Source: a plasmid
Assembly (NCBI RefSeq): GCF_988243305.1
Contig: NZ_OZ547137.1
Direction: 5' to 3' (one strand)
DNA: 64,000 nt
Position numbers: made by a program. This document shows, one piece after another, positions 6,001-9,000 of this stretch. Within the stretch, counting starts at the first letter, position 1; every line of letters begins with the position of its first letter.

Positions 6001-9000
6001 TCAATACTTAAACAGGGATCGTTTCGCAGAGAATACTACAGTTTTTTGAAATCAGCGACTTGAAAGTTGTGACGATGATCTGTGTTGGCGCACAAATCAT
6101 GTCTGATTACGACCGTTTAATGTAATTTTGATAATAAAATGACTGAAAAGTAGGAAATGCTTTAACCAGGGTACCGGCCCCGGGCGGGACCGGCAGTTTC
6201 TAGCATTTCGGGTGTCTGCCCCTGAAATACCTCACACTTCCGGAAAGCGGGGACTTCCGTGCTTCAGGCCAGAGTTACCTGCACCACTGTATTTCCCCTG
6301 TGAATATTCAGTTCACATAACTGTTCCCTGAATATCAGTGAAAAACACAACACCGTGGCGCACACGGCAAGCAACCCGATAAGGGTATATTTCGTCATAA
6401 ACTTTGACATCTTTGCAAAGAAGAGGCTACAATCAGTAGTGCTAAGTGCATCATGCAGACCTCACGAGTTAATGGATTAACGAGTGGGGTCTTCGCATTT
6501 CTGAAACCTGCGTCTTATTCAGCCATTCTTCGGTCATCTGCAGCAGTTTTCTTGCATCGTGACTTCTGAGCAACGGAATGCCAGCCTGCCTCAGAACCTC
6601 TTCCAGAAGAGTATCCCAGCATCTGCGTTCCGAACGTAAATGACTGTCATCAGCCAGCTATACTGCTGCAACAATACTGAACGAACGCCGTTCAACGATA
6701 ACCACATCGACATGCACTGAGATACCATCCTGAATAACAGCCACCACTGGCGCGATCAGATATTAGTTGTCTGGAGATTCAGGGGACAACCTAACTTGAG
6801 CCCGCTATAGCGCGAAGCCGAAAATTATTGTTCGTATGCTCCCGCTGGTCCAGAATGGGAATTTCCTCTGGCTGATGTTGAACTGTCATGGAGAATTGAA
6901 ACTTGTTTAAGACTTTGGCAGCCTACTGTTTTTAATACACCCAATAAGGTATGAAGATGAAACTAGGGAAGTTAATACCGCCATGAAAAGATAAATAATA
7001 CCCGTGGAATATATTTCCTCATGTTACTCTCCATATCAAATAAATGGCACCTGTATTTCAGACATCCTGAATATTACAGCACACATTGAACAACACCTTA
7101 TTTTGTGAAATTAATCACAAAATATAAAATCACGACTTAATACGGAAAAAACTCTGTGCTACTCAGAACTGTCCGGTCATACTGCCCGACCGGATATTAA
7201 AAAAAGCAAATCTCATGCATTATTCAGCCTTCTGAATCCCTGGAGTAATGAAGGCTGCTTTTTTCGTTACACCCTTCCCCGGCTGCGCCGGTGGCAGTGT
7301 TCAGCCCTTTTTCGGGCAAACTACTGCCAGTCTGTCCGGGGCGCAACACCGGCAGCCCGTCGCCATGCTTCTGCCGCTTCCATCCAGCGTCCACTGACCT
7401 CCAGAATAACGGCCCGGCTTCCGGCACGCTGCCAGCGCCAGACCTGACCGTTCCGTGAACTGTTTCTGAATCCATTCATCTTTATCACTCCTCTTTAACC
7501 CGTCAGTATTATGGTGTTAAATAATCTACTGAATTGGCTTCCTTTCGGGTACGGAAGTTATTTCCTTTTAAGCCTTATTTCCCTGCCTCCTCTCTGATGG
7601 AGGCTTTTTTTTATTTCTCATCAAGCACGGCCTGAAGTTCTGCCTTTATCCGGTTCTGGCGGCGGATTTTATCCAGACGCGCTGCCGCATACGCTTCCTC
7701 CTCCTGAGAAATATGCTCCGTCACATACCCTTCCGTGTCATACCGGCAGGCACCGGCTTTCATGGCACACAGATAGCTTTCTGAACGGGTGATGGCCTTC
7801 AGCGCCCTGCGCAGTTTTTTATGCGAGAGCGGGATATTCCGCTGCGCCACGTCTTCCAGTAACACGTCCCGGATACCGCAGGCCAGAAGCCGGGGCGTGT
7901 CACCGTCAAACAATCCCGGCCACCAGGGTTTCAGGGTATTCACGGCCTCATCCAGCGTGGGCAGGTTCAGATAAATGGACAGTGCCTGTCTGGCCTGCGC
8001 TTTTTTTGCCGCCAGCTCTGCTTCCCGGGCTGCTTTCTCGGCCAGCTTCTGCTTTTTCACCTTCCACTTTGGTGGCGTGGTGACATTGATGATGGTTTTC
8101 CGGCTGCGGACAGGCGTCTCCCCTTCCGTTTTCCGCTTCAGTGTCAGTACCGGTCGCTTCTGCTCTGTCATGCTGTGTTCTGCCTCTGACGAATCATCCT
8201 GTTACGGTCAAAGATACCACACCCGTCACAGCGCCAGAACGCCCAGCACAGCCAGATGACAGGCGTAGAATACCGGGAAAAAATCCCCGGGCCAGAAACG
8301 GGGTAATGATTTTCCTGCACACGACACCAGACCAACGGTCAGCACCGTCATCACAAGACCAGCCACCGCCGCTGCATCACTGGTGGCAAGGTTAAGCGCC
8401 GGAATAACAGCCAGCAGGCAGGCGACCAGCGCCAGACGTTCCGCTCTGTCTTCCGCCCGGTACAGCCGGTGGCTGACTGCCAGCATCAGCAGCCCGGCAA
8501 TGCCGTAACTGGTGCCGGACAAGGGCCCCCACAGGGCCATCAGAAGAATGGCCGCTGCTGTACGCCACCCACTGCGCGTTTCACACCACGTCAGCACCTG
8601 TGCCGCCACTGCAAAGGCAAACAGGATATTCCCCTCATACCAGGGAAAGCCGGCCAGATAATATGCGAACTGGGCAATAATCCCCCATCCCCACAGCCGG
8701 TTAATGGCCGGTTGCCGGATATTCGCATGACGGGACAGATTCAGCCCCCACACCAGGGCAAACAGCGGAAAGGCTCCTCGCCCGGCCAGAAACATCCATT
8801 CCTGCTTCAGCTGGAATATCAGATTGATGTGGTCCAGTACCATCAGCACCAGTGCCACCGTTTTGATGATATCCCGCTGTCCGGGTGACCAGACCAGAAA
8901 TGACTGCAACCAGGTATCGGTCCGTGCAGCCAGTGAATCGTTACGTGTCGTGTTCGTGTTATCCGTTGTCATCAGTGTTTGTCTTCCTGTATCAGTCTCC

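Follow-up and report, generated by a model that had tools for sequence, protein, structure and literature searches.

Does the hok-family toxin gene beside the replicon of plasmid contig NZ_OZ547137.1 (NCBI RefSeq assembly GCF_988243305.1) still serve an addiction system? The gene, a short open reading frame (ORF) of the srnB type, lies between repA2 and finO in a 64,000-nucleotide stretch of this plasmid, referred to throughout as the window. We propose that the locus is a decaying remnant of a srnB/srnC-type (hok-family) type I toxin-antitoxin (TA) module next to the IncFII replicon, which has probably lost its functional toxin and its capacity for post-segregational killing. In the intact form of the F plasmid, a stable toxin mRNA, its 5' end paired with its 3' end, stays closed and is slowly activated by 3' trimming; the toxin is translated by way of a leader ORF, a short-lived antisense RNA, SrnC, blocks translation, and plasmid-free cells are killed. 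In the window the toxin half of this module bears several lesions: a deletion that joined the mRNA, from about position +37, to what is left of a DUF2726 pseudogene at its 3' end, with loss of the promoter and the 5' tac element; a mutated toxin Shine-Dalgarno sequence; a 2-bp deletion that shortened the toxin to 44 amino acids, with loss of Tyr45 and the residues EARK; a 1-bp deletion that frameshifted the leader; and a 24-bp deletion mediated by repeats, which destroyed the protective stem-loop after the toxin stop codon.

Alignment to F srnB (NC_002483.1, coding sequence 2926..3075, WP_001312851.1, 49 amino acids) and to other plasmid alleles defines the extent of the locus:

6143..6516, minus strand: the whole srnB/srnC-type remnant, homologous to the F-plasmid srnB locus L005:2812..3207

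The remnant is 93% identical to F srnB over the aligned bases, with 27 internal gap columns (2+24+1), and this nucleotide homology, together with synteny beside repA2, places it in the F-plasmid srnB/srnC lineage. On one side of the toxin lie repA2/copB (5737..5991, minus strand) and the CopA RNA (5518..5608); on the other lie a DUF2726 pseudogene, an ANR-family regulator gene and finO (about 7611..8171, minus strand), their coordinates having been transferred from the RefSeq annotation of an identical plasmid. A preliminary description of this DNA had proposed a second hok-family toxin of the srnB type by the IncFII replicon, between repA2 and finO, and both the alignment and a Pfam match bear this out; part of the interval given there, 6398..6460, is the srnB' (mok-like) leader. 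The toxin itself is marked by three features:

6264..6398, minus strand: truncated toxin ORF of 44 codons (MTKYTLIG...VQVTLA) plus TGA, RefSeq WP_023144756.1 "Hok/Gef family protein", with a Pfam match
6265..6266, minus strand: scar of a 2-bp deletion, AC missing in the alignments between T6266 and G6265
6254..6265, minus strand: displaced tail codons GAA GCA CGG AAG (EARK) in the +1 frame, from frame translation and alignment

The length of 44 amino acids is counted from the conserved RefSeq-style MTKY start at 6398; an ORF listing gives a longer call of 48 amino acids (6264..6410, minus strand) that reads MSKFMTKYTLIG...VQVTLA, in full MSKFMTKYTLIGLLAVCATVLCFSLIFREQLCELNIHRGNTVVQVTLA. The peptide matches Pfam HOK_GEF (PF01848) at 36.3 bits (cut-off 22, E 4e-9) over profile positions 2-40 of 42 and is identical to F-plasmid SrnB at 42 of its 44 residues, so its resemblance to Hok is not a matter of chance. 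Judged by the conserved positions listed in a recent Hok survey (bioRxiv 10.1101/2025.08.07.668861), the Hok/Gef core is present, with a hydrophobic N-terminal helix containing Cys and Thr followed by L-C-E (...AVCATVLCFSLIFREQLCEL...). The C-terminal Tyr/Cys48-Glu pair is missing, the ORF ending one codon earlier (GCC TGA).

How the tail was lost is clear from the alignments. The preliminary description had noted that the toxin stops at ...VQVTLA with EARK immediately after it in the +1 frame, and had suspected a small deletion of the conserved tail. Translation of the three minus-strand frames indeed gives ...WPEARKSPLSG... in the next frame, and alignment with F srnB and other alleles traces the loss to 2 bp within the Tyr45 codon: full-length alleles read CTGGCCTACGAAGCACGGAAGTAA where the window reads CTGGCCT--GAAGCACGGAAG, that is, CTGGCCT[AC]GAAGCACGGAAG. 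With the AC of TAC (Tyr45) deleted, the frame closes at GCC-TGA and EARK moves to the +1 frame; the stop codon that once came after EARK is gone as well, taken by a further deletion of 24 bp. The idea that 44 residues might be the normal length for this subfamily fails, the normal form, like F SrnB, having 49. Among the SrnB-cluster homologues shown in the survey alignments, LAYEARK and LAYEPKK are the usual C-termini, LSYEER being one of the minor variants, and across 1,264 unique Hok peptides position 48 is Tyr or Cys in 96% (bioRxiv 10.1101/2025.08.07.668861). PLSDB counts point the same way, with 2,337 records for the F-type 5' region and 363 for the lineage to which the short form belongs. 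The same survey points out that Tyr followed by GAA makes a UACG motif, proposed as a site of TadA Tyr-to-Cys editing across Hok toxins. The 2-bp deletion (6265..6266; F L005:3058..3063) takes exactly the AC of this motif, within CCUACGAAG. The sequence CUACGAA is identical to the anticodon loop of tRNA-Arg(ACG), the natural TadA substrate.

Short indels are a common class of sequencing and assembly error, and the gene might on that account be full length in reality. The identical 44-residue protein, in contrast, has index entries in 6,963 blocks of the assembly collection and is a RefSeq non-redundant protein, the same 2-bp gap occurs in every independently sequenced plasmid of the lineage that we examined, and the deletion does not fall in a homopolymer. 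We reject an error on the strength of this wide recurrence and consider it next to impossible. The allele is thus not peculiar to the window's plasmid: it is widespread and already catalogued, the Hok survey listing it in its SrnB cluster (cluster 76) under the number 1754 (bioRxiv 10.1101/2025.08.07.668861), and a literature search for a described truncated srnB returned nothing specific.

Is the shortened toxin gene still transcribed and its mRNA still activatable? Two features at the 5' end bear on this:

6507..6516, minus strand: first srnB-homologous bases AAGACGCAGG, with the breakpoint directly upstream (alignments)
6469..6755, minus strand: remnant of a DUF2726 pseudogene that runs into the srnB leader, for which RefSeq records a frameshift, an internal stop and an absent N-terminus (annotation, alignment)

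In F-type loci the bases upstream of AAGACGCAGG read ...GGTATTATCGCGGCGGGTGTCTGAGCCTTTCTGGTTCAGGC and include a probable -10 element and the mRNA 5' end; this -10 was assigned by eye, as a consensus scan did not flag it. Upstream of 6516 the window has the 3' end of a DUF2726 gene in place of srnB homology, and alignment to an intact DUF2726 gene shows that its homology stops at ...GGCTGAATA, a few bases from where srnB homology starts. This boundary is a deletion junction, and what was lost there comprises the srnB promoter and, at the 5' end of the mRNA, about 37 nt that include the tac element. A sequence search found neither the F-type promoter and 5' tac element GGGTGTCTGAGCC nor any tac-like match near the locus, which leaves the mRNA with no promoter of its own and no 5' tac able to pair with the 3' end (fbi). 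A crude consensus scan of 6050..6750 likewise gave no sigma-70-like promoter for the toxin strand, but it also missed the promoter assigned by eye in F srnB. There is no insertion sequence (IS) element at the breakpoint. In R1 hok, single substitutions at tac G4, C5 or T6 abolish toxicity by locking the mRNA closed (PMC9841398). As to the junction itself, other plasmids carry about 780 bp between DUF2726 and srnB, including a hypothetical/thermonuclease-family gene, and this stretch is deleted in the window, where the frame of the DUF2726 remnant runs on into the srnB leader and the TGA of the intact gene is TGG.

The signals for translation have also changed, in the leader and directly before the toxin:

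6395..6454, minus strand: frameshifted leader ORF (srnB'/mok analogue) MMHLALLIVASSLQRCQSL (translation, alignments)
6444..6445, minus strand: TT run, the site of a 1-bp deletion (TTT to TT; alignments)
6460..6463, minus strand: leader Shine-Dalgarno GAGG, kept, inside the conserved antisense-target hairpin (alignment, folds)
6407..6415, minus strand: former toxin Shine-Dalgarno region, GCAGAGAGG in F and GCAAAGATG in the window (alignments)

The leader ATG is present. F and the H2-type allele have leader and toxin in one reading frame; in the window the 1-bp deletion in the T-run has shifted that frame, and the leader now ends at a TGA that overlaps the toxin ATG (ATGA). Since R1 mok need be translated only up to the region of the hok start (PMC9841398), such a frameshifted upstream ORF (uORF) need not itself be harmful. 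The core of the toxin Shine-Dalgarno sequence has changed from GAGAGG in F to AAGATG. A related allele from an ENA metagenome contig (L008:1034..1664) combines an F-type promoter, tac and Shine-Dalgarno sequence with a T/Q-type ORF and 3' untranslated region (UTR). Its leader has a 1-bp shortening of its own (ATGAAGTAC-GTAGC) and likewise ends at an ATGA overlap, its 3' end mismatches its own tac at three paired positions, and it is either a recombinant or an intermediate.

At the 3' end of the locus, the partners of the missing 5' end persist while the element that would protect the mRNA is gone:

6253..6260, minus strand: lone surviving direct repeat ACGGAAGT, the scar of the 24-bp deletion (alignments)
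6210..6218, minus strand: CAGACACCC, the perfect complement of the missing 5' GGGTGTCTG, so that the 3' partner is kept and the 5' partner gone (sequence match, folds)
6143..6194, minus strand: 3' terminal hairpin (6173..6194) and 3' end segment (6143..6167) (folds, alignment)

The 24-bp deletion, between two ACGGAAGT repeats, took the original TAA stop together with one arm, the 5' one, of the stem-loop GCGGGGAC-GGAA-GUCCCCGC. Folding of the region after the toxin stop gives -26.2 kcal/mol (z -3.3) for F and -11.8 kcal/mol (z +0.6) for the window, so the window lacks the stable stem-loop that protects the processed mRNA; in R1 hok, toxicity is lost through exonuclease degradation when substitutions weaken the final 3' stem-loop of the processed mRNA (PMC9841398). 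Predicted folds of the F mRNA set nt 1-16 against the extreme 3' end or, after 3' trimming, against CAGACACCC; both partners survive in the window, at 6143..6167 with three paired positions substituted and at 6210..6218. We had considered CAGACACCC as the primary fbi partner of the missing tac and rejected it, the minimum free energy (MFE) fold of F placing nt 1-16 on the extreme 3' end instead. Between the 3' UTRs of F (L005:3150..3207) and the window (6143..6200), the terminal hairpin shows paired changes, AUGCC...GGCAU having become AUGCU...AGCAU. These look compensatory, and suggest that structural constraint acted on the lineage at a time when it still had its 5' end.

An Rfam model of the hok-family mRNA leader up to the toxin start (RF01794, gathering score 59) allows the architecture to be scored as a whole, with the window's own leading-region hok/mok/sok locus as an internal positive control:

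F srnB: 95.1 bits
F-type allele: 93.3 bits
Window leading-region hok/sok (55173..55349): 88.9 bits
Window repA-proximal locus: 24.8 bits
H2-type allele: 24.7 bits

The repA-proximal locus thus has no 5' leader match at the gathering score. Its weak Rfam "sok" match (6388..6604, 24.8 bits, with a 69-nt insertion) was considered as a sign of an intact leader and rejected as such evidence. The leading-region locus had been called intact in the preliminary description, and is so: 55017..55349 (minus strand) encodes a 70-residue Mok and a 52-residue Hok ending AYESGK, which we take to be identical to R1 Hok.

The lesions, their distribution and their nesting can be read directly from the plasmids compared. 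Records in PLSDB were counted as follows:

F-type promoter/tac region: 2,337 records
DUF2726 junction, the lineage with the short form: 363 records
2-bp-deletion probe at 99% identity or more: up to 472 records, including short partial matches (147 with less than 80% coverage, for a true number of about 325-472)
All window-specific deletions: 22 records

Four extra records fetched to check the mismatch between 472 and 363 all had the junction. The DUF2726 junction was present, and tac absent, in all 14 sampled loci with the 44-residue form and in the window, and junction alleles with an intact 49-residue ORF also exist (L007, L009-L014). The most parsimonious order of events would therefore place the 5' deletion first, the 2-bp deletion second, and the 1-bp and 24-bp deletions last, and such a pile-up of small deletions after promoter loss looks like relaxed constraint. 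A further lesion, an 8-bp deletion (GCACTTTA) with a G-to-C change in the leader/SrnC 5' region, occurs in L013, L019, L021 and L024; it is found on both 49- and 44-residue backgrounds, and is either recurrent or spread by recombination.

Several points weigh against loss of function. Apart from its tail the ORF is intact and still scores above the Pfam threshold. R1 Hok tolerates many single substitutions and E49A is toxic on overexpression, so that part of the tail is dispensable. The missing toxin-strand promoter is weak evidence, F's own promoter having escaped the same scan, and transcription of the remnant could come from same-strand genes upstream of it, by read-through. The overlap of the leader TGA with the toxin ATG could still bring ribosomes to the start codon, and a similar leader frameshift arose independently in L008, where the promoter is intact. 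Even for F, neither MFE nor partition-function folding arrived at the open, translatable state described in the literature, the leader Shine-Dalgarno sequence being paired in all truncations; folding therefore cannot prove translational silence, and the argument about translation rests on analogy with R1 hok. Finally, the allele is very widespread, although this could reflect tolerance or clonal spread of the host plasmids.

Taken together, these points could describe a working TA module, in which a toxic 44-residue peptide is made from an mRNA produced by read-through or from an unrecognized DUF2726 promoter, a uORF ending in ATGA couples translation to the toxin start, and a SrnC-like RNA restrains the whole. 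The intact transmembrane segment and LCE core, the tolerance of Hok to substitution and the sufficiency of mok translation up to the hok start speak for such a module, as does an allele that is abundant and little diverged. We nevertheless think it improbable: the locus has lost its promoter, tac and the 3' stem-loop, carries a mutated toxin Shine-Dalgarno sequence and failed the Rfam architecture test, and in R1 hok single-base damage to tac or the stem-loop abolishes toxicity, Y48N is a loss-of-function mutation and a C-terminal tag also abolishes toxicity (PMC9841398). Moreover, the independent 8-bp deletions in some sublineages look like drift rather than maintenance. Because the damaged elements (tac, the last 3' stem-loop and Y48) matter in R1 hok, we infer that the toxin half of the decayed locus would be neither properly transcribed, nor activatable, nor fully active, with transcription, translation and toxicity all lost.

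Has the antitoxin half met the same fate? The preliminary description had pointed to the plus strand for an antisense RNA, and both a promoter and a hairpin are found there at the level of sequence:

6404..6433, plus strand: antisense promoter TTGACA-N18-TACAAT, 11 of 12 consensus matches (promoter scans)
6441..6506, plus strand: predicted SrnC-like RNA, a 5' tail and hairpin followed by a U-rich stretch, with inferred ends (fold)

The promoter occupies the position homologous to TTGACC-N18-TACAAT in F and is the sole promoter-like site that the consensus scan found on either strand in 6050..6750. Since one such site per 700 bp is expected by chance, it is the positional homology that provides real evidence for an antisense promoter. 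The predicted RNA folds at -23.3 kcal/mol (z -3.6), and the homologous F segment at -30.6 kcal/mol (z -5.3). With its own promoter and its complementarity to the leader, the antisense gene looks intact, and its transcription into a SrnC-like RNA probably continues as a by-product.

The state of this gene raises the possibility that the RNA is more than a by-product: with the toxin half dead, an orphan antitoxin could have been selected to neutralize the srnB of co-resident or incoming F-type plasmids and so act in anti-addiction. The substitution that damages the toxin Shine-Dalgarno sequence changes the antisense -35 on the opposite strand from TTGACC to TTGACA, improving a retained promoter to consensus, and the alignments show that the antisense hairpin is the same as in F-type alleles except for one F-specific base. 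The predicted single-stranded 5' tail, on the other hand, differs from the F-type target at 4-5 positions, and in the Gerdes-lab model this tail is said to be the recognition end in hok/sok. The 8-bp deletion in some sublineages falls in this very region and also argues against constraint, leaving selection for an orphan antitoxin rather unlikely in our estimation. It is equally doubtful that the dead locus persists because a SrnC-like antitoxin with a consensus -35 usefully disarms F-type srnB killing, or that the 44-residue peptide is still toxic; were the peptide toxic, the near-universal Tyr/Cys48 tail of Hok would be dispensable. We favor continued decay, in which post-segregational killing would be left to the intact leading-region hok/sok locus.

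This allele has a practical bearing on plasmid annotation. Pipelines label its ORF "Hok/Gef family protein" or "type I toxin" on hundreds of resistance plasmids, and surveys that count "srnB" as an addiction system would overcount, because the toxin half here has very probably been dead since promoter loss; in this lineage, a "Hok/Gef family protein" annotation at this position is not to be counted as a functional addiction system. The locus belongs to a classical system, of which it is a decayed allele that is ordinary, common among plasmids and already catalogued, and it opens no new question. It also offers a tidy natural example of the stepwise decay of a type I TA module, the elements hit being ones that proved essential in the mutational scan of R1 hok.

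Other elements in the window describe the plasmid that carries the remnant. At gathering score, Rfam matches an AAC_AAD leader/attI of a class 1 integron (15904..15985, minus strand), FinP with the traJ 5' UTR (51215..51324), AS-traI (22706..22782) and AS-traG (32084..32169), which together indicate an F-type conjugative resistance plasmid. A full-length match to AS-pc02 ("Antisense to pHK01_099"; 7186..7370, plus strand, 208.9 bits) lies antisense to the gene of the ANR-family regulator (about 7267..7479, minus strand), with which it overlaps.

The closest known relative of the remnant is the RepFIC-proximal srnB/srnC of F (SrnB WP_001312851.1, 49 amino acids), which occupies the same place directly upstream of repA2/copB, is 93% identical in nucleotide sequence across a shared 370 nt, and encodes a toxin matching it at 42 of 44 residues. 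The two loci share the leader Shine-Dalgarno sequence, the antisense-target hairpin, the position of the antisense promoter, the 3' terminal hairpin and the CAGACACCC box. Unlike F srnB, the window locus lacks the promoter and the first approximately 37 nt of the mRNA with tac, has AAGATG for GAGAGG at the toxin Shine-Dalgarno sequence and a frameshifted leader, encodes a toxin without YEARK, has lost the stem-loop after the stop, and differs by three substitutions in the 3' end segment whose F counterpart pairs with the 5' end.

With R1 hok/mok/sok, which the window also carries intact in its leading region, the locus has in common the toxin family (PF01848) and a regulatory logic built on a leader ORF, an antisense RNA directed at that leader and fold-back of the mRNA between its two ends. 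The mok frame of R1 differs from that of hok; the srnB leader is normally in frame with its toxin. Within the window, the leading-region hok passes RF01794 with a full 52-residue Hok, whereas the repA-proximal copy fails and ends before the Tyr. Pedersen and Gerdes reportedly found in 1999 that the chromosomal hok loci of E. coli K-12 are inactivated by insertions and rearrangements. As in those loci, toxin expression here would have been lost through structural damage while recognizable elements persist; unlike them, and without an IS at the breakpoint, the window's locus combines a 5' deletion fused to a pseudogene with small deletions, and does so on a conjugative plasmid.

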